The notes: generated from the letters alone by a model not told the origin. 64,000 bases of DNA from Candidatus Poribacteria bacterium (GCA_003635185.1 PYJA01000138.1:43820-107819); one strand, 5' to 3'. Counted from the first letter of the stretch, positions 20,242-45,381 are shown. Made by a program: numbers and translations.

Positions 20242-20282
20242 TTTTCAATATCGGGAGTTAAATCGACAGCACACAAATTAAC

Positions 20283-28692: not shown

Positions 28693-29769
28693 ATGGATAA
28701 ACTAAAAATCGCACATATTGGGACAGGTAATCGCGGTTCCAATACATACCTTCCACTGATAGCAAAATTAAAAGATGACTTAGAACTCGTTGCCGTGTGT
28801 GATACACACGAGGGGAGAGTCAAAGCGCAGGGCGAAAAGTATCAAGTGCCTGCCTATACCGATACTGAGCAGATGTTGGAGACAGAAAAACCAGACATCA
28901 GCTCTATTGTTATCACACCGAGTAACAACCATATTCCGGGGATCCTCTGTTCACAGCATGGTGTCAGTTATTGCACAGAAACGCCTATTAACACCGACCT
29001 CAAACGCGCAGATATGATGATAGAAGCAGCCAAAGAACACAACACAAAGTTGGAGGTTAACGAAAACTATTATCGCCGCCCATCAGAACGTATTAAACGA
29101 GCAATGATCCTTGAAGGAATCTTTGGCAAAGTGAATATTGCCCATAACGATTTCCGCGGGCACGGTTATCACGGTATTGGTCTTATACGGAGTTATGTCG
29201 GGTTTGACAACGAACCGGTGCAGGTTTACGGTTTTAATAAATCGTTTAACGTGCAGGATCACGTATGGCGAAAAGGACAACCCCGACGTAAGAAAGAGGA
29301 TTGGTTACATTCAGTCATTGAATTCGCTGACGGCGCAGTAGGGATTTTCAATTTCAGCAGTCTCTCTTACGGTTCACCGCTCCGTGGATTTAATGGAACA
29401 AAATTCTATGCTGAGCGCGGGATGTGTTTCCGGGATGATGCTGTTATCTTGAACGATGAGGCGGATGAGCAACGTCCGGTTACGATTACACGTAAAACCA
29501 ATAACGTTGGCGGTTATGAAACGCTTGCTGCCCTTGTTACTGACACAAATCCCGAAGTTGTGTGGGAGAACCCATTGCAGAATTATCCACTCAGTGATGG
29601 TGAGATCACTGTCGCATCAGAATTGATGAGCATCGCAAATGCTGTGCGAAATGATACTGAACCGGAATATGGTGCATACAATGGACGCAAAGATAGAGAA
29701 ATTGATGTTGCTATGGGACGTTCATGCTCAAATAACGGTGCACCAGTAACATTTCCATTTGAGTACTAA
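28693..29769 (+). CDS. Gfo/Idh/MocA-family oxidoreductase
   Basis: N-terminus MDKLKIAHIGTGNRG and the ExP motif (CTETP). Confidence 0.7.
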   Translation: MDKLKIAHIGTGNRGSNTYLPLIAKLKDDLELVAVCDTHEGRVKAQGEKYQVPAYTDTEQMLETEKPDISSIVITPSNNHIPGILCSQHGVSYCTETPINTDLKRADMMIEAAKEHNTKLEVNENYYRRPSERIKRAMILEGIFGKVNIAHNDFRGHGYHGIGLIRSYVGFDNEPVQVYGFNKSFNVQDHVWRKGQPRRKKEDWLHSVIEFADGAVGIFNFSSLSYGSPLRGFNGTKFYAERGMCFRDDAVILNDEADEQRPVTITRKTNNVGGYETLAALVTDTNPEVVWENPLQNYPLSDGEITVASELMSIANAVRNDTEPEYGAYNGRKDREIDVAMGRSCSNNGAPVTFPFEY

Positions 29770-29881: not shown

Positions 29882-30766
29882 ATGAAATATTTTCGATCGA
29901 TTTTTGTTTTACTGCTTATATTAGGTGCGCCCCTACTCGCTAACGAATGGGCGACCTACTACTTTCCAGGCAAAGTTGGCAGTTCCTGGATTTATGAAGA
30001 TCAAGATGGCAACGAATTAACGCGCTACGCTGTTGAAGAAAAAAATGTTGAAGGCAATACGTTTCGCGCTTTCGAGTATGAACCTGAGATAGATGATTGG
30101 GAAAAATATATGTATGCTGTGCAACCTTTTTTGTATCAAGTCGGGGATGAATGGGTTGCTTTCTACGTTGGAGATGATATAGAAAACGCGACCGAGTCAA
30201 TCCTGAGTAAAAAACTTGACGAAACCCTTGCGATGATTCGTCAACAAACTGCAGGACAACTCCCTCCCGGTGTCACAATTGATTTTGACTATACTATTGA
30301 CCCCAAAGCACAAGATTATTTTTACCTATTTCCAACACCTATTGCATATAATGAAGAATGGGTCGCTATGGAATTAGATGTAAAAGTAGGGATGACCATG
30401 GACATTCAAGGAGCACCCGTTGAAATTCCTGCAGCACTTAAAACCGTTTCTTCTACGACAAATATTGTAGAAACAGGGAACGTTATTGGAAAAGAAACTG
30501 TTGAAACTGAAGCAGGGACTTTTGAAGAGTGCTTAAAAATTGAATATAGAACCAAAACAACCGTAGACACAGAACTCCCTCCCGAATACAAGCAGCTTCT
30601 CCCTGAGCAACAAACTAATGAGTCTGTTTCAACCTTGTGGTTAGCCCCTAATATCGGGATTGTCAAATTCAAGAGTGAACAGGAGAATTCAGATGAGGTG
30701 AAAACACTTGAATTAAAAAGCTACGAAATCCAATCTGATGAATCCGAAAACGGAGAAAGTAAATAA
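29882..30766 (+). CDS. Secreted protein, lineage-specific paralog family (member 1 of the tandem array)
   Basis: Signal peptide MKYFRSIFVLLLILGAPLLA with GGAGG RBS. Family blocks [68 protein letters not shown]. Confidence 0.6.
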   Translation: MKYFRSIFVLLLILGAPLLANEWATYYFPGKVGSSWIYEDQDGNELTRYAVEEKNVEGNTFRAFEYEPEIDDWEKYMYAVQPFLYQVGDEWVAFYVGDDIENATESILSKKLDETLAMIRQQTAGQLPPGVTIDFDYTIDPKAQDYFYLFPTPIAYNEEWVAMELDVKVGMTMDIQGAPVEIPAALKTVSSTTNIVETGNVIGKETVETEAGTFEECLKIEYRTKTTVDTELPPEYKQLLPEQQTNESVSTLWLAPNIGIVKFKSEQENSDEVKTLELKSYEIQSDESENGESK

Positions 30767-30826
30767 TCTGCGGGACCTGCTCGGACTGCTGTCAGATTGA
30801 TGATTCTTTATAAGGTGACATTCCGC

Positions 30827-31792
30827 ATGTTGAAAAAACTGTTTCCTTTCTTGATATTTTCTCTAACTTTTTATTTCAGTACGACTCTAATAGGAAACGA
30901 ATCCACGCAAAAGTATTTTCCAAGTACGCTTGATAGTTTTTGGGTTTATGAAGACCAAGGTGGGAACGAGTTCACACGTCGTGTGATTCAAGGAGAAGAA
31001 ATTGCGGGGAAGACATATTACGGTATCAGTTACGAACCTGTGTCAGAAGATTGGGCAGATTTTAACCGTTACATGCATCTTTCTCTGTTTAATATTGGGG
31101 AGGAATGGATAACGTTTTTTGTAGAAGATGAAATAAAAAAGGCCGTCATGGCACGCTTAACCAAAGAGATGGAAATTTTCTCTAAATTGGCAAAGAGTTC
31201 TTTAGAAAACAACACCCCACCCGAACTCAACCTTACTGTTGACTTCAACTATCATGTGGATGTAGAAGCAAAAGACGAATTCAATTTACTTCCGATCCAA
31301 GCAACTCCGGATGTAGAATGGGACACAACACAAATTAATGCCAAAATCACCATGAAGTTCGACATACAAGGATTGCCAGACTTCCAGGGTGCTGCAGAAA
31401 TGCCTGAATTCACACTTGATTTTACTATCCTTGAAACGGGAAAAATCCTCGGCACAGAAACTGTTGAAGTGGCCGCTGGGACGTTTAAAGATTGTCTGAA
31501 AATCGAGTATCGAACGAAAACAGAAATGACAGCATCCCAACCAACAGCAACGGGCGACTTACCGGGAGAATCGGTTACGACTTTATGGTTTGCACCCAAT
31601 GTTGGAATTGTCAAATTTCACCAACAATCTGATAAGATTTTTCTCAATTTGATGTCAGATAGAGATGCCGTTGATGCGACAATGTCTGATGAAGAAGCTG
31701 CAGAGATTACTGCTCCTTCGGTCAAGACTTATGAATTAAAGAGATACCAAATAGTGTCTGAAGTTTTACTAAACGATGACAACAAAAAATAA
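30827..31792 (+). CDS. Secreted protein, same paralog family (member 2)
   Basis: Signal peptide MLKKLFPFLIFSLTFYFSTTLIG. Blocks [60 protein letters not shown]. Confidence 0.6.
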   Translation: MLKKLFPFLIFSLTFYFSTTLIGNESTQKYFPSTLDSFWVYEDQGGNEFTRRVIQGEEIAGKTYYGISYEPVSEDWADFNRYMHLSLFNIGEEWITFFVEDEIKKAVMARLTKEMEIFSKLAKSSLENNTPPELNLTVDFNYHVDVEAKDEFNLLPIQATPDVEWDTTQINAKITMKFDIQGLPDFQGAAEMPEFTLDFTILETGKILGTETVEVAAGTFKDCLKIEYRTKTEMTASQPTATGDLPGESVTTLWFAPNVGIVKFHQQSDKIFLNLMSDRDAVDATMSDEEAAEITAPSVKTYELKRYQIVSEVLLNDDNKK

Positions 31793-31840
31793 ATAATTTT
31801 TAGACTTATACCAACCAGAAAACAGATATGGAGGGTTCTC

Positions 31841-32737
31841 ATGTTAAAAAGATTTTGTCCGGTATTGATATTACTTTTAGCCTTTGGTTTTAGCACAACC
31901 TTGTTAGGGAACGAGTCAGTGCAGAAATATTTTCCTGGCACATTAGATAGTTTTTGGGTTTATGAAGACCAGGATGGAAATGAGTTAACACGTTATTCAA
32001 TTGAAGATGAAGAAATTGCCGGTGAAACGTATCTTTCTTTTAGTTATGACCCTGAGTTAGAAGATTGGGCGAATTATAGTTGTTTTATTCATCCGGGGTT
32101 ATATAATGTGAATGATGAAGGGATCACCCTTGTTGTTGGCGACGCGGTAGAAAATGCCGTCGAAGCGCGTCTTAAAAGGGAAATGGATATGTTCGTCGAA
32201 ATTTTTAAACGAGAAATTTTTAGCCAAGCACCGCCAGGTGTAGAAATGCCCACCTTTAATTTAGATGTTGAGACACAAGGACAAGATTTTTTACTGCTAC
32301 CTGAAAATGTTGTAGTGGATGAAGAATGGGACGCAAACCAAGTCAAAGTCAATGCTAAGATGATCATGGAAGGGGCGGGCGCTTCAGAGAATGAACAATT
32401 GGGGATGGATTTCACGATAATAGAAACAGGAATTGTGCTCGGCACTGAAACTGTTGAAACGATTGCTGGGACATTTGAAGACTGTTTGAAAGTTGAATAT
32501 CGTACAGAAACAACCGTAACGCCTCCACCTGATGAAGTAGCACCGCCAGGCGAAACCGTAACGACAGTTTGGTTTGCACCTAATGTTGGAATCATAAAAT
32601 TACATCAAAAATCGGGATACATGATCTTAGACATGTTACCAGATGATGTCGCTTTACCACCTAATCAGGAAAAGACATTGGAATTAAAGAGATATGAAAT
32701 CAAAACCGCTGAATCGGAAAGTGATACTGAGAATTAA
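31841..32737 (+). CDS. Secreted protein, same paralog family (member 3)
   Basis: Signal peptide MLKRFCPVLILLLAFGFSTTLLG. Same conserved blocks. GGAGGG RBS. Confidence 0.6.
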   Translation: MLKRFCPVLILLLAFGFSTTLLGNESVQKYFPGTLDSFWVYEDQDGNELTRYSIEDEEIAGETYLSFSYDPELEDWANYSCFIHPGLYNVNDEGITLVVGDAVENAVEARLKREMDMFVEIFKREIFSQAPPGVEMPTFNLDVETQGQDFLLLPENVVVDEEWDANQVKVNAKMIMEGAGASENEQLGMDFTIIETGIVLGTETVETIAGTFEDCLKVEYRTETTVTPPPDEVAPPGETVTTVWFAPNVGIIKLHQKSGYMILDMLPDDVALPPNQEKTLELKRYEIKTAESESDTEN

Positions 32738-32784
32738 TATACAAGAAGTCAGACATCACCTTCAACTCAATTGGAGAAAATATC

Positions 32785-35478
32785 ATGTTAAAAAGACTGA
32801 ACATCATTTTAATACTTTTATTCGCCTTTAGCTTTAGTGGGACACTGCTGGCAGATGAATCTGCAAATAAATATTTTCCATCAGCGCTTGGAAGTTTTTG
32901 GGTTTATGAAGACCAAGATGGTAACGAGTTGACGCGTAAGGCGATTGAAGGCGAAGAAATTGCAGGTAAGACTTATCCAGCGTTCAGCTATGAACCTGAG
33001 TTAGAGGATTGGGCAGAATATAGTTGGTTTATTCGCCCTCCTTTGTATCAAGTGAGTAATGCTGGTATCACACTTGTTGTTAGCGATGAGGTTGAAAAAG
33101 CAGTTAAAGCACGCCTTAAGAAAGAGGTAGGTATTCTCACTGATGCAATAAAACGGGATGCTCCAGTGGACGTAGGTATTGACGCTGATATTAAGGTACA
33201 GGGACAAAACCAGTTATTCCTCCTCCCCGACACTATTACTTTCAATGAGGAGTGGGACGTTAACCAGATTGAAGCAAACGTCAAGATGAAATTTCTGGGT
33301 GGAGGTGCCCCAGAAGATCAACCATTGGTAATTGATTTCACGATTTTAGAAACAGCAATTATCTCTGGTACTGAAACTGTTGAAACACCTGCTGGAAAGT
33401 TTGAAGACTGCCTGAAAGTTGAATATCGTACAGAAACTACTGCAGCAATGACACCTGCCCCGCCACCCGATGAAGTAGACCCGCCAGGAGAAACCGTAAC
33501 GACTGTATGGTATGCGCCAAATGTCGGAATTGTCCAATTTCGTCAGGAAACGAATTACATTTTCTTAGAAATGATTCCAGACGATGAAGACCTTCCTGTG
33601 CCACCTGGACCTAAAACGAAAACATTTAAATTAAAGAGATATGAAATCAAATCGGGTAATTTTGAAGGTGTTGAGAAAAAATCTATTACGACACCCAAGC
33701 CACTAAAAGATGATACCGAAAAAGGAAAAACTAAAACAAGTAACGCACAATCCCCGAATTATTTTCCCGGCACATTAGATAGTTTTTGGATTTACGAAGA
33801 CCAAGACGGTAATGAGTTAACGCGCCATGCAATTGAAGGTGAGGAAATTGCTGGTAAAACTTATCCTGCATTCAGTTATGAACCGGAGTTAGAGGATTGG
33901 ACGAAATATAGTCCTTTTATTCGTCCTTCTCTATACCAAGTGAGTGAGGTAGGGCTAACGCTTGTTGTCAGTGATGAGGTGAAAAAAGCTGTCAAAGCAC
34001 GCCTAAAAAAAGAGATAGATACTTTCGTCCAAACGGCAAATGCTGAAGCAGGAGGCCCTGATTATGATTGGAATGTAGAGATTGAGGTAAAGATAAAAGA
34101 CAATTTGTTACTTTTACCCGATGCTATTAATGTCAATGAAGAGTGGGATGCGAACCAGATTAAAGCCAACGTGAAGTTAACCGATATAATTGATGATGTT
34201 CCGGATGAAGATGATCCATTCTATTTAGATTTCACCATCGTCGAAACAGGGATTGTATTAGGCATGGAAACTATTGAAACACCTGCTGGAATATTTGAAG
34301 ACTGTCTCAAAGTTGAATATCGCACAGAAACAACAGTAGTATTTGACCCTCATGAGGATGCAGATCCACCTGGTGAAACTGTAACAACAGTATGGTTTGC
34401 TCCCAATGTCGGAATCGTAAAATTACATCAAAAAGTGAAATACATTTTTTTAGAGTTGATCCCAGATGATGCTGATTTTCCAATGCCTCCTGACCCTAAA
34501 CCGAAAACATTTGAATTAAAGAAATATGAAATCAAATCTGCTGATACTGAAAGCAGCAAAAGTAATTCAAAGGCTGCTGTAAAATCGGCAGAAGACAAAG
34601 TTGAAACTAAAAAAGCAAAACCTTCATCAGATGGCGCGCAGCGTTCAAATTATTTTCCAAGCACTTTAGGGAGTTTTTGGATTTATGAAGACCAGGATGG
34701 TAACGAATTGACGCGTCATGCAATTGAAGGTGAAGAGATTGCAGGTAAAACTTATCCTGCATTCAGTTATGAACCGGAGTTAGAGGACTGGGCAGAATAT
34801 AATCCTTTTATTCGACCATCCCTATTTAACAGAAGTGATGCTGGAATCAAACTCATTGTCAAGGATGAGGTTGAAAAAGCAGTTAAAGCACGCCTAAAAA
34901 AAGAGATGGATATTTTAGTCAAGGGAATGAAAGAACAAGTTCCACCAGAGGTAGGTATCCCTCCCGACTTTGATTTGAATGTTGATATTGAGGTGAAGGG
35001 AAAAGAAATTTTTTTTCTGCTACCTGAAACTGTTGAAAACAATGAAGAATGGGATGTCAATCAGATTGCTGCCAACGTAAAATTAACCTTTGAGGGTGAG
35101 GGAATTCCAGCCGGAGAACAAGCAGCAATGAATTTTACGATTATAGAAACAGGAATTGTTTTAGGCACAGAAGTTGTTGAAACTGCTTCTGCCGGTAAAT
35201 TTGAAGATTGCCTAAAAGTTGAATACCGCACAGAAACAACAGCGGTGTTTACTCCTGATGACGCTGATGGTATGGATCCTCCTGGTGAAACCGTAACGAC
35301 AGTTTGGTTTGCTCCCAACGTCGGAATCGTAAAATTACATCAAAAATCGGGGCACACCTTCTTAGATATGTTCCCGGATGATTCTTCTTATGTTTTTCCA
35401 CTTAAGAAAGAAAAGACCTTTGAATTAAAGAAATATGAAATCAAATCTGAAGAACCGGAAAATGAGGTAAGCAATTAA
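32785..35478 (+). CDS. Secreted protein, same paralog family: three tandem copies of the family domain fused in one 897-aa ORF (member 4)
   Basis: One signal peptide, then three about 270-aa units each containing [65 protein letters not shown] and K.YEIKS. Internal units share long identical stretches (ELTRHAIEGEEIAGKTYPAFSYEPELEDW). Confidence 0.6.
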   Translation: MLKRLNIILILLFAFSFSGTLLADESANKYFPSALGSFWVYEDQDGNELTRKAIEGEEIAGKTYPAFSYEPELEDWAEYSWFIRPPLYQVSNAGITLVVSDEVEKAVKARLKKEVGILTDAIKRDAPVDVGIDADIKVQGQNQLFLLPDTITFNEEWDVNQIEANVKMKFLGGGAPEDQPLVIDFTILETAIISGTETVETPAGKFEDCLKVEYRTETTAAMTPAPPPDEVDPPGETVTTVWYAPNVGIVQFRQETNYIFLEMIPDDEDLPVPPGPKTKTFKLKRYEIKSGNFEGVEKKSITTPKPLKDDTEKGKTKTSNAQSPNYFPGTLDSFWIYEDQDGNELTRHAIEGEEIAGKTYPAFSYEPELEDWTKYSPFIRPSLYQVSEVGLTLVVSDEVKKAVKARLKKEIDTFVQTANAEAGGPDYDWNVEIEVKIKDNLLLLPDAINVNEEWDANQIKANVKLTDIIDDVPDEDDPFYLDFTIVETGIVLGMETIETPAGIFEDCLKVEYRTETTVVFDPHEDADPPGETVTTVWFAPNVGIVKLHQKVKYIFLELIPDDADFPMPPDPKPKTFELKKYEIKSADTESSKSNSKAAVKSAEDKVETKKAKPSSDGAQRSNYFPSTLGSFWIYEDQDGNELTRHAIEGEEIAGKTYPAFSYEPELEDWAEYNPFIRPSLFNRSDAGIKLIVKDEVEKAVKARLKKEMDILVKGMKEQVPPEVGIPPDFDLNVDIEVKGKEIFFLLPETVENNEEWDVNQIAANVKLTFEGEGIPAGEQAAMNFTIIETGIVLGTEVVETASAGKFEDCLKVEYRTETTAVFTPDDADGMDPPGETVTTVWFAPNVGIVKLHQKSGHTFLDMFPDDSSYVFPLKKEKTFELKKYEIKSEEPENEVSN

Positions 35479-35510
35479 TAGTATCAGACACATCATTTGT
35501 TCCTTAAACT

Positions 35511-35600
35511 TATATCTAACGTGAGTTTGATAAAAGCCTATTGTAGAGCAAACTTTCCAGTTTGCGCCATAGCACACAAACTGGAAAGTTTGATGCTCAA
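35511..35600. repeat. Family H TIR fragment plus family G REP-like hairpin pair
   Basis: AACGTGAGTTTGATAAAAG, then GCAAACTTTCCAGTTTGC..CACAAACTGGAAAGTTTGATGCTCAAG. Confidence 0.45.
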
Positions 35601-35702
35601 GAACCGCAAGGTGGGTCTTCGGAGAAAAGACCTATTATTGAGCTGATGTCATTTATTATCAAACTGGTGTTAAATCTATAATTGTCAATTAAAGGAGTTA
35701 TT

Positions 35703-36593
35703 ATGTTGAAAAAATTTTGTGCTGTCCTGATATTTTTGTTCGTCTGTAGTTTTAGTGCAACCCTACTTGGAAATGAGACAGCGAAAAAGTATTTTCCCAG
35801 CACGCTTGGAAGTTTTTGGGTTTATGAAGATCAGGATGGCAATGAGTTGACGCGTAAGGCGGTTCAAGGTGAAGAGATTGCAGGTGAAATGTATCATGCT
35901 TTTGAATATGAACCGGCATTTGAAGAAAATTGGGAGAAGTATGAGTATTACGTTCATCCCACGCTTTTTAAGGTAAAGGATACAGGAATTAAGTTCTTGA
36001 TTGGTGATGAGTTTAAGAAGGCTTACCAGAAACGCCTGGAAAAAGAGTTAAAAGATTCTATACAACAAACAGGAGGACCACCGGGATTTACGCCTAACTA
36101 CGATGTTAAGGTAGAAGTAGTAACACAAGAAAATTTCTTTTTGCTCCCTACCCCTTTCACCCTCAACGAAGAATGGGATTCAATGCGTCTAAAACCCACC
36201 GTCAAGATAACGATGAGTTTTGCAAACTCAGATGTTGATGTAGAGTTGGCAGGGATGTCGCAGCAAAGCACGATTTATTTCACTATTATGGAGACAGGTA
36301 TTGTCAGTAGCAAAGAAACCGTTGAGACACCTGCTGGCACGTTCAAAGACTGTTTGAAAGTTGAATACCGGACAAAAACTGTGATGCCGTCATTCGCTGG
36401 GGAAGGCGGTCCAAAGGCAGGTGAATCTGTTTCAACATTATGGTTAGCTCCCAACGTCGGCATTGTAAAATTTCACCAAGAAGCGGAGAAACCGACTCTC
36501 AGTGATTTCAATAATTCTGAAACCACGACACAAGTGAAGACACTTGAATTGAAGAAATATGAAATCAAAACTGATGCAGCGGAGGCTGAATGA
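35703..36593 (+). CDS. Secreted protein, same paralog family (member 5)
   Basis: Signal peptide [23 protein letters not shown]. Blocks [70 protein letters not shown]. Stop overlaps the hemB start (ATGA). Confidence 0.6.
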
Positions 36594-37567
36594 GCGTTTT
36601 TCCTATCTATCGTCCAAGACGACTACGCGCAAGTGAAAACCTACGGCGCCTCGTGCGAGAAACGAGTCTGTCTGTAGACGATCTCATCTATCCAATGTTT
36701 GTTGTCCACGGAGATGACACGGCAATAGAAATTTCTTCTATGCCAGGATGCTACCAATATTCTATTGATCGGCTCGTTAAAGCTGCGAAGGAGCTTGCAT
36801 CGCTTGGAATTCCTGGGACGATCTTGTTCGGAATTCCTGAAACGAAAGATGCACTTGGATCGGAAGCTTATGCAGAAGATGGCATCATTCAGCAGGCGGT
36901 ACGTGCCATTAAGGACGCAGTCTCCGACCTGCTTGTGATTACAGACGTTTGTCTGTGTGAATATACTGATCACGGACACTGCGGTATCATTGAAGGCGGA
37001 GATGTGCAGAACGATCCTACACTTGATTTGCTTGTTAAAGAGAGTGTATCGCACGCGCGGGCAGGCGCTGATGTTATTGCTCCATCGGATATGATGGATG
37101 GCCGTGTCGGCGCAATTCGCGATGCCTTAGACGAAGAAGGCTATGAAAATATACCTATAATGGCGTATTCGGCAAAATACGCTTCTGCTTTTTATGGTCC
37201 CTTTCGTGAAGCGGCAGAATCAGCACCGCAATTCGGTGATCGCCGTTCATATCAGATGGACCCAGCGAATGCAGAGGAAGCACTACGGGAAGTGGCGTTG
37301 GATATTGAGGAAGGCGCAGACATTGTAATGGTGAAACCAGCACTCTCATATCTTGACGTTATCCATCAAGTGAAGACAGAATTTCAGATGCCTGTTGCAG
37401 CCTACAACGTCAGTGGCGAATATGCTATGATAAAGGCAGCCGCACAGAATGAATGGATTGATGAAAAACGCGTAGCACTGGAGGTCTTAACAAGTATCAA
37501 ACGTGCTGGTGCAGATATGATTTTGACCTACTTCGCAAAGTCGGTCGTTGAATGGCTTGAAATTTGA
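36590..37567 (+). CDS. hemB: Porphobilinogen synthase (delta-aminolevulinic acid dehydratase)
   Basis: N-terminus [21 protein letters not shown] and active-site region with the Schiff-base lysine in VMVKPAL. Confidence 0.9.
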
Positions 37568-37610
37568 GGTGCGGGTATATAGTAAAACCTATAATTAAGG
37601 GGACATTTCT

Positions 37611-37668
37611 GCAGCGTAAACTTCCAGTTTGCGTCAAATATGCACAAACTTCCAGTTTGATGCTCAAC
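37611..37668. repeat. REP-like hairpin pair, family G
   Basis: GTAAACTTCCAGTTTGC..CACAAACTTCCAGTTTGATGCTCAAC, about 45 nt after the hemB stop. Confidence 0.45.
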
Positions 37669-37819
37669 TTCTATTGTCCGTTATGTCTCCAAAACAGGTT
37701 TATCAAAGTGTTCCAATAATTTCAAGGTTTACTATGAGTAGGTTCGGTAATAAAACCGTTCCTACCGTTGATGTATTTACATATTTTAGATTTTACGAAA
37801 TTAGAATTGGAGGAACGAA

Positions 37820-39103
37820 TTGGAGAGTAGCAAATCTTTATCAGCGTGGCAAAAATCACAACAATTTATCCCTGGCGGTGTCAACAGTCCTGTCCGTAAT
37901 TTTAGCAAGGTTGGTGGACATCCCCGCTTTATTGATCGCGGTGAAGGGGCCAAGATTTACGACATAGACGGAAACAAGTATATCGATTATGTCGCTTCAT
38001 GGGGACCATTAGTTTTGGGGCATGCACATCCTGATGTGGTCGAAGCTGTCAGGACTGCAGCAGCGCGAGGCACAAGTTTCGGTGCTCCGACAACATTAGA
38101 GACAGAACTTGCAGAAACCATCGTCAATGCAGTGTCTTCCATTGAACAGGTCCGACTTGTCAACTCAGGCACGGAAGCGACAATGAGCGCGATTCGTGTC
38201 GCACGCGGTTATACTGGTCGCAATAAAATCATCAAGATAGACGGATGCTATCACGGACATGTAGACTATCTATTGGCGAAAGCGGGTTCAGGCGTTGCAA
38301 CTTTCGGTCTTTCGGATAGCGGTGGCGTGCCAGAGGATTTCGCACGGAATACGCTCACTATTCCTTTTAACGATCCTGAGGCATTGACAACAACAATTGA
38401 GGCTAACACGGACGAGATCGCCTGTCTCATACTGGAGCCTATTATGGGCAACATGGGGATTATCCCACCACGTGTGGGGTACCTCAATGAACTTCGTGAG
38501 ATTACTGAACAGCATGGGATCGTGCTTATCTTTGATGAGGTAATTACCGGTTTTAGAGTCGCTTATGGTGGCGCACAGTCATATTATAACGTTACACCAG
38601 ATATGACATGTTTAGGGAAGATAATCGGTGGTGGTTTGCCTGTCGGTGCTTACGGCGGAAAACGGGAGATTATGCAGTGTGTTGCCCCAGAAGGTGATGT
38701 GTATCAGGCAGGCACATTATCTGGTAATCCGTTGGCTGTCACTGCAGGTATAACGACTTTGAAAAAATTGGCGGAACCAGAGGTTTATGAGCAACTTGAA
38801 AACCGCGCATCTACTCTGGCAGACGGAATAGCAGAAGCAACCCAAAAACATGGAATTGATACATGGCATAGCCGCGTCGGTTCAATGCTGATGCTATATT
38901 TTACAGCAGAGACTGTTACTGATGCAGATGGCGCACGAACAGCTGATATAGAACGTTATCGTCAGTACTTTTGGGGGCTCCTTGAACGTGGTGTATATGT
39001 CGCCCCTTCCCAATTTGAAGCCGGATTTGTATCCTTAGCACATTCCGAAGAGGATATCAATATGACCGTTCAAGCTGCAACTGAGATAATCGCAAATCTG
39101 TAA
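37820..39103 (+). CDS. hemL: Glutamate-1-semialdehyde 2,1-aminomutase
   Basis: N-terminus [13 protein letters not shown], class III aminotransferase PLP-lysine region (DEVITGFR). Probable TTG start at 37820 with GGAGG RBS; the ATG alternative is not in frame nearby. Confidence 0.9.
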
Positions 39104-39110
39104 CAATAGC

Positions 39111-39230
39111 AGGACTTCGCATTCCCCCCTTGATAAGGGGGGTTAGGGGGGTTAAAAGGTGCTATTTCAGCGATCTAACCCCCTAAATCCCCCTTATCAG
39201 TGGGACTTTAAGAAAAATGCGTAAGTCCTG
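39111..39230. mobile_element. MITE-like element, family E copy (short, about 120 bp)
   Basis: GACTTCGCATTCCCCCTTGATAAGGGGGG...CCCCCTTATCAGTGGGACTTTAAG..GCGTAAGTCCTG. Confidence 0.55.
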
Positions 39231-39247
39231 AATAGTAAAGGAATTGA

Positions 39248-40228
39248 ATGTCAAGTTTTGATCAGATTGTAAATTTAATTGCTGACGATCTTAGTGCTGT
39301 AGAGGCGAAACTAACTGAAAATACAGCGAGCGAATATAGTTTTGTAGATATGGCGGTTCAGCATGTTGTAGAAGGAGGCGGTAAACGCCTGCGTCCTATC
39401 CTTGTTGTGCTATCTGCAAAAGCGCGTGGATACGAAGGTGCGGATGCACACACACTCGCAGCAGTTGTTGAACTCATCCATGTCGCATCCCTTGTGCATG
39501 ATGATGTGCTTGATGAAGCTGCAATCCGCCGTGGACGTGAAACATTACAGACAAAATGGGGCAATAAGGTGGCAGTACTTGTTGGAGATTACTTGCATGC
39601 CCGCGTTCTTTCAATGCTCGTTTCCCGCCGCGCAGATGACCCCGCAATGGCGATCCTTGCCGATACCACGCAGGCAATGTGTGAGGGAGAAGTCATCCAT
39701 GCCTATAAAAGTGGAGATTTTGATATATCAGAAGAGGAATACCTAAAGATAATTAGTTTTAAGACCGGTAAGTTGATTGCCGCCTCTTGCACGCTCGGTG
39801 CGATCCTCGGACCTCATGATACTCAGCAGATTGAGGCATTCACAACCTACGGCAAACAAATTGGAACTGCATTCCAAATTGTAGATGATCTGCTTGATTT
39901 CGTGGAAGACCCAGAAAAATTAGGAAAAAATGCTTTTGGTGACCTTCGTGAAGGGAAACTTACTTTTCCTATTATACATACCCGAAAAGTGTGTGATGAT
40001 AATGAGAAACAAACGCTTGAAAAAGTGCTAAATCCTGACACCGATGAAACCGAAGCTATTACCTTTGTTGAATCTTTATTCCAAAAATATGGTGTGGAAA
40101 TTCACTGTTTGGAAGTTGCACAGGGTTATGCCGACCGTGCTAAAACTGCGTTAACAAATATACCACAATCGGATGCGCGTACAGCCTTGCAAAACCTCGC
40201 TGATTACGTAGTTTCACGGGATTCATAG
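39248..40228 (+). CDS. Polyprenyl (trans-isoprenyl) diphosphate synthase, IspB-like long-chain
   Basis: First DDxxD (LVHDDVLDEAAIRRG) and second DDxxD (IVDDLLDF) aspartate-rich motifs. Confidence 0.85.
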   Translation: MSSFDQIVNLIADDLSAVEAKLTENTASEYSFVDMAVQHVVEGGGKRLRPILVVLSAKARGYEGADAHTLAAVVELIHVASLVHDDVLDEAAIRRGRETLQTKWGNKVAVLVGDYLHARVLSMLVSRRADDPAMAILADTTQAMCEGEVIHAYKSGDFDISEEEYLKIISFKTGKLIAASCTLGAILGPHDTQQIEAFTTYGKQIGTAFQIVDDLLDFVEDPEKLGKNAFGDLREGKLTFPIIHTRKVCDDNEKQTLEKVLNPDTDETEAITFVESLFQKYGVEIHCLEVAQGYADRAKTALTNIPQSDARTALQNLADYVVSRDS

Positions 40229-40233
40229 GCAAA

Positions 40234-41355
40234 ATGTTTTATCCAGCACATATAAATCTGCACAATAGAAAATGCCTTGTTGTAGGCGGCGGCACTGTTG
40301 CTGAACGTAAAGTTGTCTCTATGCTCATCAGCGGTGGAGATGTAACTGTGATTAGTCCAGACGCAACCGAATTAGTTATATTCCTTGCTGAGATCGGTAC
40401 AATACAATGGCATAAACGGCAGTTTAAGACAGGAGATACAAGCGGATATTTTCTTGTATGTGCCGCAACCGATTTTACAGATATAAACACCGCGGTATAT
40501 ACTGAAGCATACGAAAAAAACAACATTCGCTTAGTCAATGTCGTTGACGTTATCCCACAATGCACCTTTGCCGCTGCGTCTGTAGTAACAGATGGTGAAC
40601 TCATGATTAGTATCTCCACCAGTGGCATGAGTCCAGCGACAAGTCGACGCATCCGAGAACATTTGGAAGAGACGTTAAAGACATCATCTTTATATACGCT
40701 TGGATACGAAAATGGAAAACCTGTACCAATTGAAAATCAAGGGTTACCGTATCCAGTTTACCTGTTATTGAAAGATCGCAAGTGTGTTGTCTTATATGAG
40801 CAGGAAACATCGGAAATTGAACGTAGAGTCTCACTTTTACGTCAATGTGGCGCGATAGTGGTGCATAATCCTATGGACTTTGGTGATGCATTCCTTGTGA
40901 TTTCCGATACACCTATAAGTGATGTTTCTGATGGCTCCTTACAGGAGACCCTTGATAGACCAAACTCTGCAGACTTCTTTACACCGAATCTCGTTATAGA
41001 TGATAACCTTATCATCAGCATATCAGCAAAGGATAGTACAGATGTAAGCAAGATGGAACGTTTACATGAGAAACTCACGCATCAGTTTGAAAACAGCGGT
41101 TACGGTGCGTTTATTGACCTGCTTGGCAAGCGGCGTCCGGAAGTCCTCAAAACTTTTCCTACGTCCAAAATGCGCGGCGATTTTTTTGAGAAACTTATCG
41201 GACATGTCGTAGACAGTCCACAAACATGTTGTCTAAGTCTTACAAATCCTGTGTGTTCTGCCGAATGCCTTTTCAACTGGGTACGACACGGTAAAATTAA
41301 GGATGCAAACAACTTTATATCGGAATTTTTAAGCACACAGCAAGCAAAAATATAA
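40234..41355 (+). CDS. Precorrin-2 dehydrogenase/sirohydrochlorin ferrochelatase-like (SirC/Met8/CysG-N-type NAD-binding domain) with an extra C-terminal domain
   Basis: N-terminus INLHNRKCLVVGGGTVAERKVVSMLISGGDVTVISP is typical of the siroheme-synthase N-terminal domain. Remaining about 220 aa unassigned. Confidence 0.55.
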   Translation: MFYPAHINLHNRKCLVVGGGTVAERKVVSMLISGGDVTVISPDATELVIFLAEIGTIQWHKRQFKTGDTSGYFLVCAATDFTDINTAVYTEAYEKNNIRLVNVVDVIPQCTFAAASVVTDGELMISISTSGMSPATSRRIREHLEETLKTSSLYTLGYENGKPVPIENQGLPYPVYLLLKDRKCVVLYEQETSEIERRVSLLRQCGAIVVHNPMDFGDAFLVISDTPISDVSDGSLQETLDRPNSADFFTPNLVIDDNLIISISAKDSTDVSKMERLHEKLTHQFENSGYGAFIDLLGKRRPEVLKTFPTSKMRGDFFEKLIGHVVDSPQTCCLSLTNPVCSAECLFNWVRHGKIKDANNFISEFLSTQQAKI

Positions 41356-41358
41356 CAA

Positions 41359-42213
41359 ATGTCAACAGAACTCTTGCATTTTCTTTTTCTTGTAACGGTA
41401 TTAGTCTATTTAGCAGCCAGTATTTTTCAGGCACTCTACCTTGCAATAGGGGAACGATCTGAAACGCCGACCCTACGCCCACGGATCGCCTCAATCGCTT
41501 TCTGGGGAACGTGTCTTGGGTTTGTTTTACTCACACTTTTTATTGCACTCTGGTGGTCGCGTGAAGGGCATTTTCCGATGAAACACTGGACAGACTCTAC
41601 AGCTTTTTTTGCGTGGGCGATTACTTTAATCTATCTGATTGTAGTGCGAGTAACGCAGCTGCGGGCTATAGGGAGTTTAGTTATACCAGGGGCATTCATT
41701 ACAATCCTGATTTCATACAGTTTCTCCAGAAACACATCCGCATTACCCGAAAATTTAGAAACCTATTGGTTAGTGCCTCACATTACACTGATTTTTCTTG
41801 CCTATGCTGCGTTTTTTACTGCATTTGGGTTCGGATTGCTTTACTTGATGGCAGAGAAAAAGATCCGCCAAAAGACAAATATGCTCTTTCATAATCTTTT
41901 TCCATCTCTCGGAGCATCAGATGAACTCGGCTATAGATGTACAATACTCGGTGTAATTCTCCTGACAATCGGTATGATCGTCGGTGTACTGTTGACACAG
42001 TATATCAAGAATTTAACTTGGAGATGGCTTGATTCTCAGATCTTTTTCACTGTCGTGACATGGGTTATCTATGTTGTGCAAATTAGTATTCGTCAACTGT
42101 GGGGGTGGCGTGGTAGAAAAGCAGCATACTCGGAAATTGTCGGTTTCATTGCAGTACTCTGTACCTACATTGGCGTGAATCTTTTTTTAGACAGCACACA
42201 TACATTTCGGTAA
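41359..42213 (+). CDS. Cytochrome c assembly-family membrane protein (CcsA/ResC/HemX-like)
   Basis: 8-TM protein with Trp-rich loops (YWLVPH, LTWRWLDSQ, WGWRG). Position directly upstream of hemA mirrors B. subtilis hemAXCDBL hemX. Confidence 0.5.
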   Translation: MSTELLHFLFLVTVLVYLAASIFQALYLAIGERSETPTLRPRIASIAFWGTCLGFVLLTLFIALWWSREGHFPMKHWTDSTAFFAWAITLIYLIVVRVTQLRAIGSLVIPGAFITILISYSFSRNTSALPENLETYWLVPHITLIFLAYAAFFTAFGFGLLYLMAEKKIRQKTNMLFHNLFPSLGASDELGYRCTILGVILLTIGMIVGVLLTQYIKNLTWRWLDSQIFFTVVTWVIYVVQISIRQLWGWRGRKAAYSEIVGFIAVLCTYIGVNLFLDSTHTFR

Positions 42214-42332
42214 TATGAGATAGTTGCACAAAGATGTGACAAGTGCAAAATTTGACATACTATCCTCAATTGTGATATAATTTACTAACTATCGGACATT
42301 CGCAAGTATTCAGTATCCGACGAGCAAGTATC

Positions 42333-43634
42333 ATGAATCAGATTGTATCTATTGGAACAAGCCATCACGTTGCCCCTGTTGAATTCAGAGAAAAGCTGGC
42401 TTTTTCCGAAGAACAACTCATAGAATCCCTCCATCATCTGCGCGAATCACATAAGGTTGATGAGGCAGTAATCCTCTCTACCTGTAACCGTGTAGAGGTT
42501 TATGGGGTTGCTCATTCCCAGCGAACAACCGAATCCCCTTTTAAAGTTCTACTTGACTTTTTGTCCAACTACCATCGAATTAGTGTAGATACTCTCAAAA
42601 AGTGGAGTTATCGTCATCATAATCTTGATGCCATTCAACATCTTTTTCGGGTTACATCCAGTCTTGATTCAATGGTTGTAGGTGAATCTCAGATTTTGGG
42701 TCAAGTTAAAGATGCGTTTGACTTTTCACGTTCGGCAGGTGGTGCTGGGGCAATTCTAAACCGCCTTTTCGCGAAGGCATTCAGTGTTGGTAAACGTATA
42801 CGTTCAGAAACCACTATTGCTGCAGGAGCTGTGTCGATCAGCTATGCAGCGGTAGAACTTGCCAAAAAGATTTTCAATACTTTAGAAGACAAAACTGTAG
42901 CGATTATTGGGGCGGGTGAGATGAGCGAACTCACAGCGAAACATCTCGTCGCTAATGGTGTTTCAAAAGTAATCGTTGCGAACCGTACTTATGAACGTGC
43001 TGTCAAGATTGCCGAGAAGTTTAAAGGCATCCCTATTGCTTATGAGGAAAACCTTAACTTCCTCATTGATGCGGATATTGTCATCAGTTCCACAGACGCA
43101 CCCCATTATCTCATTGAACGTAAACCGCTTGCTGAGATTATGAGAAAGCGGAAGCATCGATATATGTTTCTCATTGACATCGCTGTTCCACGCGATATTG
43201 AACCGGATGTCAGTAAAATAAACCATGCTTTTCTCTATAACATAGACGATTTAGAAGCTGTTGTCGCTTCAAACCTCAAAGAACGCCAACAGGAAGCGGT
43301 TCGCGCTGAGCAGATTGTCTCCGAAGAGGCAAAACGGTTTCATGATCAATTGCAAATCCTTGAAGTTAATCCCACCATTAAAGCGCTACATCAGCAGTTT
43401 CAGCAGATAGCCGAATGTGAACTCAAAGCCTGCTTGGGTAAGACTACATTGTCGGACACACAAGAAGATGCTGTTGCATCTATGACACAAGCAATCGTTA
43501 AAAAACTTTTACACCACCCGGTAGAAAATTTGCGCCACGCTGTTAACGATGGCAATGCTGATCATGGGCAATATGTTCATGCCCTCCAAGAACTGTTCGC
43601 TTTGGACAATAATGACGATAAGGATCAGGCATGA
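42333..43634 (+). CDS. hemA: Glutamyl-tRNA reductase
   Basis: N-terminus IGTSHHVAPVEFREKLAF, active-site LSTCNRVEVY, NAD-binding GAGEMSEL. Confidence 0.9.
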   Translation: MNQIVSIGTSHHVAPVEFREKLAFSEEQLIESLHHLRESHKVDEAVILSTCNRVEVYGVAHSQRTTESPFKVLLDFLSNYHRISVDTLKKWSYRHHNLDAIQHLFRVTSSLDSMVVGESQILGQVKDAFDFSRSAGGAGAILNRLFAKAFSVGKRIRSETTIAAGAVSISYAAVELAKKIFNTLEDKTVAIIGAGEMSELTAKHLVANGVSKVIVANRTYERAVKIAEKFKGIPIAYEENLNFLIDADIVISSTDAPHYLIERKPLAEIMRKRKHRYMFLIDIAVPRDIEPDVSKINHAFLYNIDDLEAVVASNLKERQQEAVRAEQIVSEEAKRFHDQLQILEVNPTIKALHQQFQQIAECELKACLGKTTLSDTQEDAVASMTQAIVKKLLHHPVENLRHAVNDGNADHGQYVHALQELFALDNNDDKDQA

Positions 43635-44557
43635 ACCGCTCAGTTACAATCGGCACGCGTGGCAGCGAACTTGCGCTATGGCAAGCATCCTTTGTAAAAC
43701 AGCAATTAGCACACCATTTCCCCGATATTGAAGTTAATCTCAAAATCATCAAAACCACTGGCGACACTATCCAAAATCGTTCTTTGGTGGGATTAGGCAA
43801 GGGCGTTTTTACCAAAGAGATAGAAATCGCGCTGTTAAACGGTGATATAGACCTTGCTGTTCATAGCCTCAAAGACCTCCCAACAGAATTACCTGAAGGA
43901 CTTTGTATAGTCGCAATCCCAACACGGGAGGATCCGCGCGATGTACTCATTACATCCACAGGGTTCCCCTTAGAAGATTTGCTGCATGGTGCGAAAATTG
44001 GCACTACAAGCCCACGACGGAAGGCACAACTCCTCCATCTACGCCCAGATTTGCAAGTTGTTGATGTCCGAGGCAATGTTGATACTCGGATCCGTAAACT
44101 TGAGGAAACCGATCTTGATGGGATTATTCTCGCGGCGGCGGGGATTAAACGCCTCCTGAAAGAAGAAGTTATCACGCAATTTTTTGAAATAGAGCAGATG
44201 GTGCCAGCAGTTGGACAGGGGGCATTGGCAATCGAAGCGCGTGAAGGAGATACGAACATTGAAAACCTACTTGTTCCTTTGAATGACTTTACGACAGTTG
44301 CCGAAATTACCGCTGAAAGAACTGTATTGGAAAGCCTTGGTGGCGGATGTCAAGTGCCGATAGGCGCGTATGCTGAACACATTGAGGGTGAACTCTCACT
44401 TATTGGAACTGTGTGTCATCCTGAAGGGAGAGTCCGTATTGTAGAAAGCGCAGCGGGAATGTTAGACGATGCCCAACACTTAGGAAAAATTGTCGCTAAA
44501 AAATTGCGTAACAGCGGTGCAAATGAACTGTTGAAAGCACTGTCAGATGTGGAATGA
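43631..44557 (+). CDS. hemC: Hydroxymethylbilane synthase (porphobilinogen deaminase)
   Basis: N-terminus IGTRGSELALWQAS, AVHSLKDLPT motif and cofactor-binding Cys region GGGCQVPIGAYA. ATGA overlap with hemA. Confidence 0.9.
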   Translation: MNRSVTIGTRGSELALWQASFVKQQLAHHFPDIEVNLKIIKTTGDTIQNRSLVGLGKGVFTKEIEIALLNGDIDLAVHSLKDLPTELPEGLCIVAIPTREDPRDVLITSTGFPLEDLLHGAKIGTTSPRRKAQLLHLRPDLQVVDVRGNVDTRIRKLEETDLDGIILAAAGIKRLLKEEVITQFFEIEQMVPAVGQGALAIEAREGDTNIENLLVPLNDFTTVAEITAERTVLESLGGGCQVPIGAYAEHIEGELSLIGTVCHPEGRVRIVESAAGMLDDAQHLGKIVAKKLRNSGANELLKALSDVE

Positions 44558-45348: not shown

Positions 45349-45381
45349 TATCTGACTTGAATTCGTAGCGGTTAATGTCTG

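Follow-up and report, generated by a model that had tools for sequence, protein, structure and literature searches.

A Poribacteria-specific tandem array of DUF3108-like proteins adjoining hemB

What do the five consecutive open reading frames on the plus strand at positions 29882-36593 encode, and are they being diversified at present? They lie in a 64,000-nucleotide stretch of DNA from a Candidatus Poribacteria bacterium (GCA_003635185.1 PYJA01000138.1:43820-107819), here called the window, and together make up seven homologous units (U1 to U7; Table 1). The original prediction had seen in them an actively diversifying family of surface or binding proteins with a hypervariable centre, a view that would call for positive selection or DGR-like mutagenesis. 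As described below, the locus is real but fairly ordinary: a domain already catalogued has expanded within one lineage, purifying selection acts on the copies, and no new mechanism is involved.

The count of five same-strand genes and seven domain copies is exact; the open reading frames lie precisely where they had been placed, and G4 carries three of the units. In a MAFFT alignment, the units are 37-65% identical to one another in amino acids (60-82% in DNA), and all of the shared blocks that had been listed are recovered, including G.ETVET.AGTF.DCLK.EYRT, GE.V.T.W.APN.GI.K, and LELK.YEIK. Because each unit is matched by the family HMM and, above the gathering score, by Pfam PF21347, this likeness reflects homology and not chance. 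Every unit has one invariant Cys. U1 is the most divergent paralog, and a GGAGG ribosome-binding site lies 5' of its gene; the G3 protein is 100% identical to the NCBI entry 'hypothetical protein C6501_19210 [Candidatus Poribacteria bacterium]'. Both linkers inside G4 are rich in K, T, S, and P, and in the alignment the first faces the columns that hold the signal peptides of the remaining units, standing in for a signal peptide.

Table 1. Features of the array and its immediate neighbours (window coordinates).
Feature	Position	Strand	Evidence
GFO/IDH/MocA-family oxidoreductase gene, conserved left neighbour of the array	28693..29769	+	Pfam PF01408, E 1e-17
G1 = unit U1, 294 aa, signal-peptide-like N-terminus and DUF3108-like barrel	29882..30766	+	PF21347 35.5 bits
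G2 = unit U2, 321 aa; alternative TTG start 30797	30827..31792	+	PF21347 35 bits
G3 = unit U3, 298 aa	31841..32737	+	PF21347 35.6 bits
G4, 897 aa, one signal peptide then three fused units	32785..35478	+	PF21347 81.7 bits, 3 stretches; three HMM domains
U4 (in G4)	32785-33654	+	
Linker 1 inside G4, 34 aa, GNFEGVEKKSITTPKPLKDDTEKGKTKTSNAQSP	33655..33756	+	read from sequence
U5 (in G4)	33757-34539	+	
Linker 2 inside G4, 36 aa, ADTESSKSNSKAAVKSAEDKVETKKAKPSSDGAQRS	34540..34647	+	read from sequence
U6 (in G4)	34648-35478	+	
Hairpin with perfect 16-bp stem, G4-G5 spacer; dispersed REP-like element	35549..35592	.	fold and recurrence
G5 = unit U7, 296 aa; alternative TTG start 35682	35703..36593	+	PF21347 38.4 bits
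hemB (porphobilinogen synthase), first gene of a heme-synthesis cluster ending at 44557	36590..37567	+	PF00490, E 6e-158

The original prediction did not recognise the family, which can now be named as Pfam PF21347 (DUF3108_like), with a YmcC-like fold. All five proteins exceed the curated gathering cutoff of PF21347 (27 bits), covering the profile only at its positions 82/135-188, and PF21347 is the precomputed Pfam match for 118 of the best 120 homologs. AF2 models of G3 (pLDDT 85, pTM 0.81) and G1 (pLDDT 89, pTM 0.82) have significant Foldseek matches only to the structures 4fvs, 3fzx, and YmcC 2in5 (probability 1.0, 1.0, and 0.72-0.97, respectively), with E-values of 1.6e-8 (4fvs_A) and 4.3e-8 (3fzx) for G3 and 1.3e-8 (4fvs_A) for G1. 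The family profile also finds the PDB profiles of 4fvs (E 6e-6) and 3fzx (E 3e-4), and all three have in common the motif TE.V.TPAGTF-DC.KV.Y...W.APN.G.V, including the Cys, as well as an N-terminal FFP..G..W; in the profile alignment, the family consensus begins with tetvetsaGtFedCLkveY here, and the 4fvs segment under the motif reads TESITTPAGTF-DCAKVKY...WYSPNVGLVR. The TM-scores to 4fvs and 3fzx are 0.37-0.53, low values that are explained by the additional 60-90 aa of the Poribacteria units. These observations show that the array units belong to the DUF3108-like/YmcC-fold family. Remote-homology searches (HMM and Foldseek) place no unit in a well-characterised family, PF21347 itself being uncharacterised; in the literature we found neither an experiment nor a ligand for any DUF3108 or DUF3108-like protein, and the PADLOC anti-phage models gave nothing at E <= 0.01 for G1, G3, G4, and G5.

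The reference structures of PF21347 and PF11306, annotated with a 'YmcC-like fold', are 4fvs (BDI_3050 of Parabacteroides distasonis) and 3fzx (BF2203 of Bacteroides fragilis). Array units and DUF3108/DUF3108_like proteins are alike in HMM score, in the Cys motif (AGTF-DC-KV-Y...W-APN-G-V), in the N-terminal (Y/F)FP..G..W, in fold, and probably in being exported. Besides their greater length, the array units differ from DUF3108_like proteins in that they are arranged in tandem and fused two to four times per polypeptide, their signals look like the signal peptidase I type (the 4fvs deposition names a putative lipoprotein), their subfamily occurs in Poribacteria only, and the array appears to be coupled to hemB. 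The E. coli protein GfcB/YmcC (2in5), an outer-membrane lipoprotein encoded in the group 4 capsule operon, distantly has the same fold (Foldseek E 4e-3 to 1e-2) but no detectable sequence similarity; it is encoded by a single-copy gene, whereas the array units lack a lipobox and have neither gfc nor capsule genes nearby. GfcB acts via partner binding, forming a GfcB-GfcC heterodimer with a KD near 100 nM (PMC8592465).

Each gene had been said to start with a signal peptide, and, read by eye, all five N-termini do have a signal-peptide-like segment, composed of M-(L)K(K/R), about 15 hydrophobic residues, and then TLLG/NES; AF2 models an N-terminal helix at low confidence. The lipobox [LVI][ASTVI][GAS]C is absent, and the predicted cleavage region of all five proteins is without Cys (the only cysteines of the signal regions are C6 of G3 and C6 and C15 of G5, none in a lipobox context), so the signals look like those of signal peptidase I substrates and not of lipoproteins. 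The periplasmic proteome of A. baumannii includes a PF11306 relative that carries a Sec signal (PMC6679007). We infer that the units are probably exported and probably soluble. DUF3108 genes have, on the contrary, been described as encoding outer-membrane beta-barrels with the YmcC fold (PMC4364669), and the array units are all-beta with strands that are alternately polar and apolar, which would be in keeping with integral barrels such as porins or channels. Such a role is nevertheless extremely improbable here, given that the units are very acidic (mature pI 4.0-4.8, D+E 16.5-20.8%), that their C-termini (...SDESENGESK, ...LLNDDNKK, ...ESESDTEN, ...EPENEVSN, and ...DAAEAE) are acidic tails with no terminal aromatic or aromatic beta-signal, that in-frame chains of two to four units joined by hydrophilic linkers match no known OMP architecture, and that the Foldseek matches to OMPs have E >= 0.39 and probability <= 0.18.

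The segment lying between EDW and EEWD (residues 77-160 in G3) had been singled out as differing strongly between copies. It is indeed less conserved between copies than its flanks (mean column conservation 0.52 vs 0.67-0.80), but it contains a conserved sub-block, D.VE.AV.ARL.KE, and strong divergence between copies is limited to about residues 115-150 of G3 and three loops further downstream. The words 'hypervariable' and 'diversifying' do not fit this region. In AF2 models of two paralogs, it is structured as a hairpin, a long helix, and strands (pLDDT 78-96). Column identity in the middle is 0.52-0.80 within positional ortholog groups vs 0.07-0.43 between paralogs. Its omega among orthologs (NG86, 13 pooled ortholog pairs) is 0.33, and no 20-codon window exceeds 0.46, whereas diversification would lead one to expect a dN/dS above 1. 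A middle region that is conserved within ortholog groups and different between paralogs points to old, functionally diverged paralogs and not to ongoing diversification.

The history of the copies can be followed in other genomes. The family was found at 77 genome loci, 75 of them titled Poribacteria and the remaining two 'uncultured bacterium', which agrees with the proposal of a lineage-specific family. The oxidoreductase homolog lies directly 5' of the array in most related loci, and in about 35 related genomes the order oxidoreductase, array, hemB is retained. Copy-number variation, for which a search had been suggested, is present in these syntenic arrays, which hold from 2 to 9 units with fusions of 2, 3, or 4. 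Several units have close orthologs: U1 in the loci L001, L006, and L007 (90-97% identical), U2 in L001 and L006 (91-92%), and U7 in L001 (95%), while U4 shares 92% identity with unit three of the three-unit gene in L006. For U5 and U6, no relative above 67% identity exists in any locus, and both lack an ortholog even in loci whose flanking units reach 87-95% identity; their dS to the nearest relatives is ~0.9, so their divergence reflects age and not accelerated amino-acid change. The tree has positional clades for the first, second, and last genes and lineage-specific bursts in a middle clade. Paralogs are separated by a dS of 0.86-1.55, and omega among orthologs of the array units is 0.14-0.29, compared with 0.06-0.11 for hemB, gfo, and hemL. 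As judged from these sequences, the array evolves by gain, loss, and fusion of units, mainly in the multi-unit gene, and its copies are ancient paralogs, each conserved in its own right, and do not form a hypervariable system.

Some of these observations might be taken as signs of active diversification, namely a middle that is the least conserved part between paralogs, a copy number that differs between genomes, an omega two to four times that of the neighbouring housekeeping genes, and a quick turnover of units in the multi-unit gene. Against this, the omega of the middle is low throughout, the middle is kept within ortholog groups, and the divergence of U5 and U6 is accompanied by a dS of ~0.9. 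A DGR mechanism, moreover, is excluded: Pfam detected no reverse-transcriptase family in the 64-kb window among 33 of 33 non-array ORFs of at least 200 aa and three more of 132-179 aa, and the array has no near-identical template/variable repeat pair, the longest exact tract between units being 44 nt and their DNA identity at most 82%. The resemblance to DGR targets is limited to a superficial one, a conserved scaffold with a variable segment; the array differs from them in having no reverse transcriptase, template repeat, or adenine-specific mismatch pattern and in having a variable segment that is conserved among orthologs. The active-diversification reading is thus largely refuted, and we consider it very unlikely.

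The lpl (DUF576) genes of Staphylococcus aureus encode tandem lipoprotein paralogs with conserved ends and a variable centre, located in a genomic island. Set beside lpl, the array is alike in how it evolves, with same-strand tandem paralogs, copy-number differences between genomes, and recombination between units. It differs in that the fold and the phylum are unrelated, its units fuse in frame, and the locus lies in chromosomal core synteny and not in a genomic island.

The explanation that we favour, and that we regard as reasonably probable, is a Poribacteria-specific tandem expansion of a DUF3108-like exported barrel, in which old paralogs, subject to birth and death, serve as binding modules co-expressed with hemB. 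Each unit consists of a putative Sec signal peptide, replaced in internal units by a disordered linker, and an acidic, probably soluble, mostly-beta domain some 265 aa in length, with a single long helix and a single invariant Cys. U1, U2, U3, and U7 are ancient paralogs with positional orthologs, kept under purifying selection, and the differing middles (hairpin, helix, loop, and strands) are paralog-specific and conserved. Unequal recombination gives rise to the birth and death of units, concentrated in the middle clade together with the in-frame fusions of two to four. The units may act as periplasmic or extracellular binding modules with differing specificities, and the fused ones as multivalent beads on a string.

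The suggested binding role is drawn from the fold and from domain fusions, in that related domains are fused to ECF sigma factors, to a BlaR1-type M56 sensor with LRR, to SLH anchors, and to M61 peptidases. The same fusions can be read in another way, with the units as accessory modules of envelope proteolysis or signalling, that is, free copies of the DUF3108-like domain found, in these same genomes, N-terminal to M61 (glycyl-aminopeptidase-type) peptidases and in ECF-sigma fusions; they would serve as partners for substrate capture, inhibition, or sensing. At least seven further Poribacteria loci have a free unit immediately 3' of genes with the order DUF3108_like, M61_N, M61, PDZ and of an ECF-sigma-fused version, and more distant relatives are fused to ECF sigma with TPR, to the M56 BlaR1-type sensor, and to M61. 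However, the array has neither an M61 peptidase nor a sigma factor nearby, be it in the window or in its syntenic counterparts, and the DUF3108_like domain of the M61 proteins scores below the gathering score (19-21 bits). We regard it as rather unlikely.

The array had been described as ending 4 nt into hemB, and the TGA of G5 (36591-36593) does overlap the hemB ATG at 36590 as ATGA; the junction reads GCGGAGGCTGAATGAGC, with the hemB ribosome-binding site within the last codons of G5. This overlap occurs in 23 of 35 distinct arrays, with a TAATG junction in 2 more, and survives in a 138-aa remnant where the last array gene is disrupted. The overlap of the genes and the absence of a terminator-like site at the G5-hemB junction suggest that the array and hemB share a transcript; the last array gene also appears to be translationally coupled to hemB. 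Further 3' of hemB are hemL, a polyprenyl synthase gene, a SirC-like gene, a HemX/CcsA-like gene, hemA, and hemC.

One could suppose from this arrangement that the exported barrels bind or shuttle tetrapyrroles or some other hydrophobic molecule, e.g., a lipid, like the lidded half-barrel carriers of the LolA/LprG type. The retained coupling of the last unit, the position of the array always directly 5' of the hemB, hemL ... hemA, hemC cluster, the architecture of a barrel with a long helix, and the invariant Cys are consistent with such a role, as is the sub-threshold Foldseek tail of the G1 model (LprG, LolA, and RseB). On the other hand, the LolA/LprG matches are not significant (Foldseek E 0.1-0.5 for the G1 model and 0.12-1.3 over both models, probability <= 0.2), the family profile aligns to E. 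coli LolA in hhalign with a probability of 0.3%, and the PDB profile match to LolA 8chx has E 0.36. With neither sequence-profile nor fold similarity significant, a LolA/LprG-type half-barrel is not supported. About 40 other family members are located at loci without hem genes, and the units show no obvious conserved pair of His or Met ligands. The related genomes are also not far apart (HemB identity 85-98%), and simple inheritance could account for the conserved synteny. A tie to the heme operon in this sense seems distinctly unlikely. We can also speculate, with little expectation of being right, that the array is a co-translated part of the heme operon that supplies graded exported barrels, some of them multivalent, which would bind tetrapyrroles or hydrophobic small molecules via a conserved Cys-containing face, with paralogs for different ligands or for host-matrix partners in the sponge mesohyl. 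If true, this would provide a first function for the DUF3108-like/YmcC-fold superfamily and a Poribacteria-specific symbiosis factor.

DUF3108 and DUF3108-like proteins are widespread envelope proteins, with three structural-genomics structures for the family or fold. A single phylum of sponge symbionts has multiplied this domain, with 2 to 9 units per array and 2 to 4 per polyprotein, has also fused it to sigma factors and M61 peptidases, and has kept one array that appears translationally coupled to hemB. The array family is a candidate symbiont-specific secreted family, for which the paralog-specific surfaces, the invariant Cys, and the conserved operon partner offer handles on function.

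The spacer between G4 and G5 is 224 nt long and has a folding z of -3.3. Its hairpin lies outside the protein family and is a dispersed REP-like element, the arm sequence of which is also present at window position 6109 and in spacers of the loci L001, L010, L015, L032, and L072.

The five-gene, seven-unit array of the original prediction is real and correctly delimited: five plus-strand ORFs (G1-G5) were located at 29882-36593, and all the shared blocks listed for them were recovered in a MAFFT alignment of the seven homologous units (U1-U7), which display 37-65% amino acid identity and 60-82% DNA identity from unit to unit. In G4, two linkers rich in K/T/S/P, 34 and 36 aa long, part three units, so that the total comes to seven. 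Good Shine-Dalgarno sequences are found for G1, G3, G4, G5, and hemB. The array does run into hemB, because the stop codon of G5 and the hemB start overlap in an ATGA, and the GGAGG of hemB sits within the final codons of G5. The G+C content is 39.7% in the array and 43.6% in the rest of the window, and the coding strand of the array has strongly positive GC and AT skew; these values are consistent with an E/K/D/N/T-rich composition and not with recent transfer. A promoter and terminator scan gave counts not above those of shuffled sequence and was hence uninformative.

Coordinates of the array and of other features in the window and in related loci (L numbers)
Feature	Sequence	Position	Strand	Remarks
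G1	window	29882-30766	+	ORF; U1
G2	window	30827-31792	+	ORF; U2
G3	window	31841-32737	+	ORF; U3
G4	window	32785-35478	+	ORF, 897 aa; U4, U5, U6
G5	window	35703-36593	+	ORF; U7
G5/hemB overlap	window	36590-36593		ATGA
Heme/siroheme cluster	window	36590-44557		hemB, hemL, polyprenyl synthase, SirC-like, HemX/CcsA-like, hemA, hemC
16-bp inverted repeat	window	35549-35592; 6109-6124		first position in G4-G5 spacer
16-bp inverted repeat	L001	13667-13710
16-bp inverted repeat	L010	11009-11024
16-bp inverted repeat	L015	9912-9927; 11012-11027
16-bp inverted repeat	L032	17000-17015
16-bp inverted repeat	L072	7834-7849
Short intergenic repeats	window	6536-6600; 14619-14683; 20275-20339
Short intergenic repeats	window	14644-14780 / 20300-20460
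Short intergenic repeats	window	39165-39230; 45305-45349; 49202-49268
Short intergenic repeats	window	6641-6691 / 50038-50088
WD40 repeat protein	window	7056-9812	-	918 aa
N6/N4 DNA methylase	window	9821-10693	+
ORF group	window	49299-50042	+
ORF group	window	50391-52343	-
ORF group	window	52439-56638	-
ORF group	window	56765-59095	-
Split last array gene	L003	14428-16423		insertion of ~1.5 kb
Split last array gene	L017	14407-16414		insertion of ~1.5 kb
M61/ECF-sigma neighbourhood	L045	4073-9512		ECF sigma-DUF3108-like-M61 fusion, then DUF3108_like/M61_N/M61/PDZ gene, then free-standing unit
M61/ECF-sigma neighbourhood	L051	4506-9972		same order
M61/ECF-sigma neighbourhood	L035	2323-7463		same order
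M61/ECF-sigma neighbourhood	L064	7338-9911		same order
M61/ECF-sigma neighbourhood	L078	2007-4667		same order

The family, which had not been recognised from the sequence alone, is PF21347 DUF3108_like, a domain of unknown function with the YmcC fold. The gathering score of PF21347 (27) is surpassed by each of the five proteins: single units reach 35-38 bits and G4 reaches 81.7 bits; the match is limited to the C-terminal half of the profile, and the matches to PF11306 DUF3108 are weaker. No NCBIfam family at a meaningful score was obtained for the array proteins, and no PADLOC match for G1, G3, G4, or G5. When a family profile built from 45 members was aligned to PDB structures, the two solved DUF3108-like structures, 4fvs and 3fzx, were matched at E values of 6e-6 and 3e-4 over TE.V.TPAGTF-DC.KV.Y...W.APN.G.V, which includes a family-invariant Cys; the N-terminal (Y/F)FP..G..W also aligns with 4fvs, but with a segment score of only -1.9 bits. 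Invariant residues are P32, Y41, D43, W163, E195, C215, E238, and W244. The AlphaFold2 models of G3 (pLDDT 85.4, pTM 0.81) and of G1, the most divergent paralog (pLDDT 89.2, pTM 0.82), have the same order of elements: a signal helix, three strands, a hairpin, one long helix (residues 100-125 of G3), and about eight long strands. In a Foldseek search of the PDB, both models matched 4fvs and 3fzx best (E 1e-8 to 7e-8, probability 1.0), followed by E. coli YmcC/GfcB, 2in5 (E 4e-3 to 1e-2), and nothing else significantly. GfcB, a distant fold relative, binds GfcC and is a lipoprotein of the outer membrane (PMC8592465), and a PF11306 protein carrying a Sec signal has been found in a periplasmic proteome (PMC6679007); the seven papers found to mention DUF3108, PF11306, or related terms assign no function and do not speak of Poribacteria. 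A lipid-carrier role like that of LolA or LprG is only hinted at by sub-threshold fold matches of the G1 model (E 0.1-0.5, probability at most 0.2), and hhalign of the family profile against an approximate E. coli LolA sequence was negative, so that a relationship to LolA was rejected.

The array represents a new subfamily of this catalogued, uncharacterised domain in Poribacteria, one that is specific to the lineage, expanded in tandem, and in part concatenated. One hypothetical protein in a Candidatus Poribacteria MAG matches G3 at 100% identity, and 878 homologs were retrieved in total. The subfamily is small: only 470 matches at E <= 1e-3 (45 at E <= 1e-30) came out of an exhaustive profile search across 1.84 billion cluster representatives. 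Among 185,579 species-representative genomes, 77 loci were recovered, 75 of which are titled Poribacteria and two “uncultured bacterium”; more distant members are likewise Poribacteria wherever they are named. The gene order of a GFO/IDH/MocA oxidoreductase gene (gfo), the array, and hemB is kept in about 35 distinct loci. An HMM census of the units, counted in arrays not cut by a contig end, confirmed copy-number variation among related genomes, with 2-9 units per array: two in L067, L069, L076, and L079; three, four, five, or six in others; seven in the window, L001, L025, and L036; eight in L006 and L018; and nine in L003. The fused genes of two, three, or four units also vary between genomes.

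In the original prediction, the middle of each unit, between the EDW and EEWD blocks (residues 77-160 of G3), was regarded as hypervariable, and the array as a diversifying family for which a DGR-type mechanism had to be considered. The middle is neither low-complexity nor disordered: in both models its pLDDT is mostly 78-96, and it folds into a hairpin, then a helix of 25 residues, a loop, and a pair of strands. In a neighbour-joining tree and identity matrices, U1, U2, U3, and U7 have positional orthologs, whose identity is 87-97% in the genomes nearest to the window (L001, L006, and L007) and which can be recognised down to about 60-70%; the ortholog sets of these four units comprise 6-22 sequences each in loci L001-L081. 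Between orthologs, omega (NG86) is 0.14-0.29 for the array units and 0.06-0.11 for hemB, gfo, and hemL. Pooled over 13 ortholog pairs, it is 0.15 in the N-terminal block, 0.33 in the middle, and 0.18 in the C-terminal scaffold, and no sliding window of 20 codons exceeds 0.46; with every region and window below 0.5, positive selection on the array was rejected. For the middle region, taken here as residues 71-190, column identity amounts to 0.52-0.80 inside ortholog groups and 0.07-0.43 between the consensuses of different paralogs, so the pattern is that expected of old paralogs (dS 0.86-1.55 between them) that have each retained a form of the segment of their own. No reverse transcriptase family was matched in Pfam by the 33 non-array ORFs of at least 200 aa in the window, and no repeat pair above 82% identity, as a template and variable repeat, occurs in the array; DGR activity and hypermutation were dismissed on these grounds. 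The longest exact tract common to two units is 44 nt, and recent gene conversion between units was rejected on this basis. The diversifying or DGR reading is thus essentially refuted: the array is not hypervariable, nor does any special mechanism drive it.

Against a backdrop of purifying selection, the array evolves by a birth-and-death process of unequal recombination and by in-frame fusion. It is the multi-unit gene that changes fast. The flanking array genes are 87-95% identical between L001 and the window; the best match of U4 is the third, not the first, unit of the three-unit genes in L001 (78%) and L006 (92%), and no locus contains a relative of U5 or U6 above 67%. A metagenome scan for close relatives of U5-U6 gave 41 pattern matches, none of which was confirmed. 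Because U5 and U6 differ from their nearest relatives by a dS of ~0.9 at an omega of ~0.25, they are not evolving fast but are old units that the window lineage has kept and others have lost. In the tree, one and the same “middle clade” has expanded in independent bursts in L036, L025, L003, and L018. Measured against a single genome, L006, dS varies about five-fold among neighbouring array genes (0.087 for U2 and 0.40 for U7; U7 against L001, 0.17), which suggests a recombination mosaic within the array.

Across 35 arrays, the hemB junction is an ATGA overlap in 23, TAATG in two, and a 23-nt gap in four. In L003 and L017, an insertion encoding two RRXRR-domain ORFs (PF14239) interrupts the last array gene, whose 138-aa C-terminal remnant keeps the ATGA overlap. 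Because the overlap is conserved, at least the last array gene probably shares a transcript with hemB and is translationally coupled to this gene. A functional link of the array to tetrapyrroles has a low probability, since many family members lie at unrelated loci and the compared genomes are close relatives (HemB 85-98% identical). The window's heme/siroheme cluster has a polyprenyl synthase embedded inside it; its SirC-like gene matches NAD_binding_7 and Sirohm_synth_M, and its HemX/CcsA-like gene Cytochrom_C_asm.

In the same genomes, about 40 single unit copies lie away from the arrays, at least seven of them directly downstream of DUF3108_like, M61_N, M61 peptidase, PDZ genes and of an ECF-sigma-fused version. 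In this second conserved context of the DUF3108-like family, an ECF sigma factor, a DUF3108-like segment, and an M61 peptidase are joined in one polypeptide. In more distant relatives, the domain lies behind an ECF sigma factor and TPR, adjoins M61, or follows a BlaR1-type M56 sensor with LRR and ExbD-like parts or three SLH repeats. It is possible that the array units are likewise partners of M61 peptidases or of ECF signalling, but nothing at the array locus supports this. Because the domain has repeatedly been recruited as the extracytoplasmic part of sigma/anti-sigma-like proteins, M56 sensors, SLH-anchored proteins, and peptidases, it is probably a binding module, in which the conserved paralog-specific middle segments and loops would set the specificity and the fused genes would yield multivalent proteins.

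All five N-termini have a positive n-region, a hydrophobic core of ~15 residues, and then TLLG/NES, and none has a lipobox Cys; the predicted mature domain of G3 spans residues 25-298. The proteins have a pI of 4.0-4.8, 16.5-20.8% acidic residues, and acidic C-terminal tails in place of an OMP beta-signal. From these features, we infer export via Sec and release in soluble form. Integral outer-membrane barrels are unlikely and were rejected: the acidic composition and C-termini argue against them, and units concatenated in frame by hydrophilic linkers fit poorly with barrels set in a membrane. As useful leads, the array offers the invariant Cys, the paralog-specific surfaces, and the conserved hemB coupling; the recurrent M61/sigma-factor fusions elsewhere in these genomes are another.

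The G4-G5 spacer carries a perfect 16-bp inverted repeat, CAAACTTTCCAGTTTG...CAAACTGGAAAGTTTG, which looks like a dispersed REP-like element, intergenic in this genome and related Poribacteria; Rfam gave nothing at gathering score in the whole window, this hairpin included. Further short intergenic repeat families, 74-93% identical and with GC-rich hairpins such as GGCGAGGTTAGGAAACCTCGCC and CCCCCTTATCAAGGGGG, may be lineage-specific repetitive extragenic elements. The protein adjoining the DNA methylase has at least 12 WD40 repeats, a eukaryote-like type of repeat protein typical of Poribacteria, and its gene carries internal 126-nt periodic DNA repeats (families D10 and D11). Pfam matches neither the 247-aa nor the 650-aa ORF of the group at 49299-59095; beside them are a Reg_prop/beta-propeller protein of 1399 aa and one of 776 aa that contains DUF5060, apiosidase-like, PKD, and Laminin_G_3 domains.
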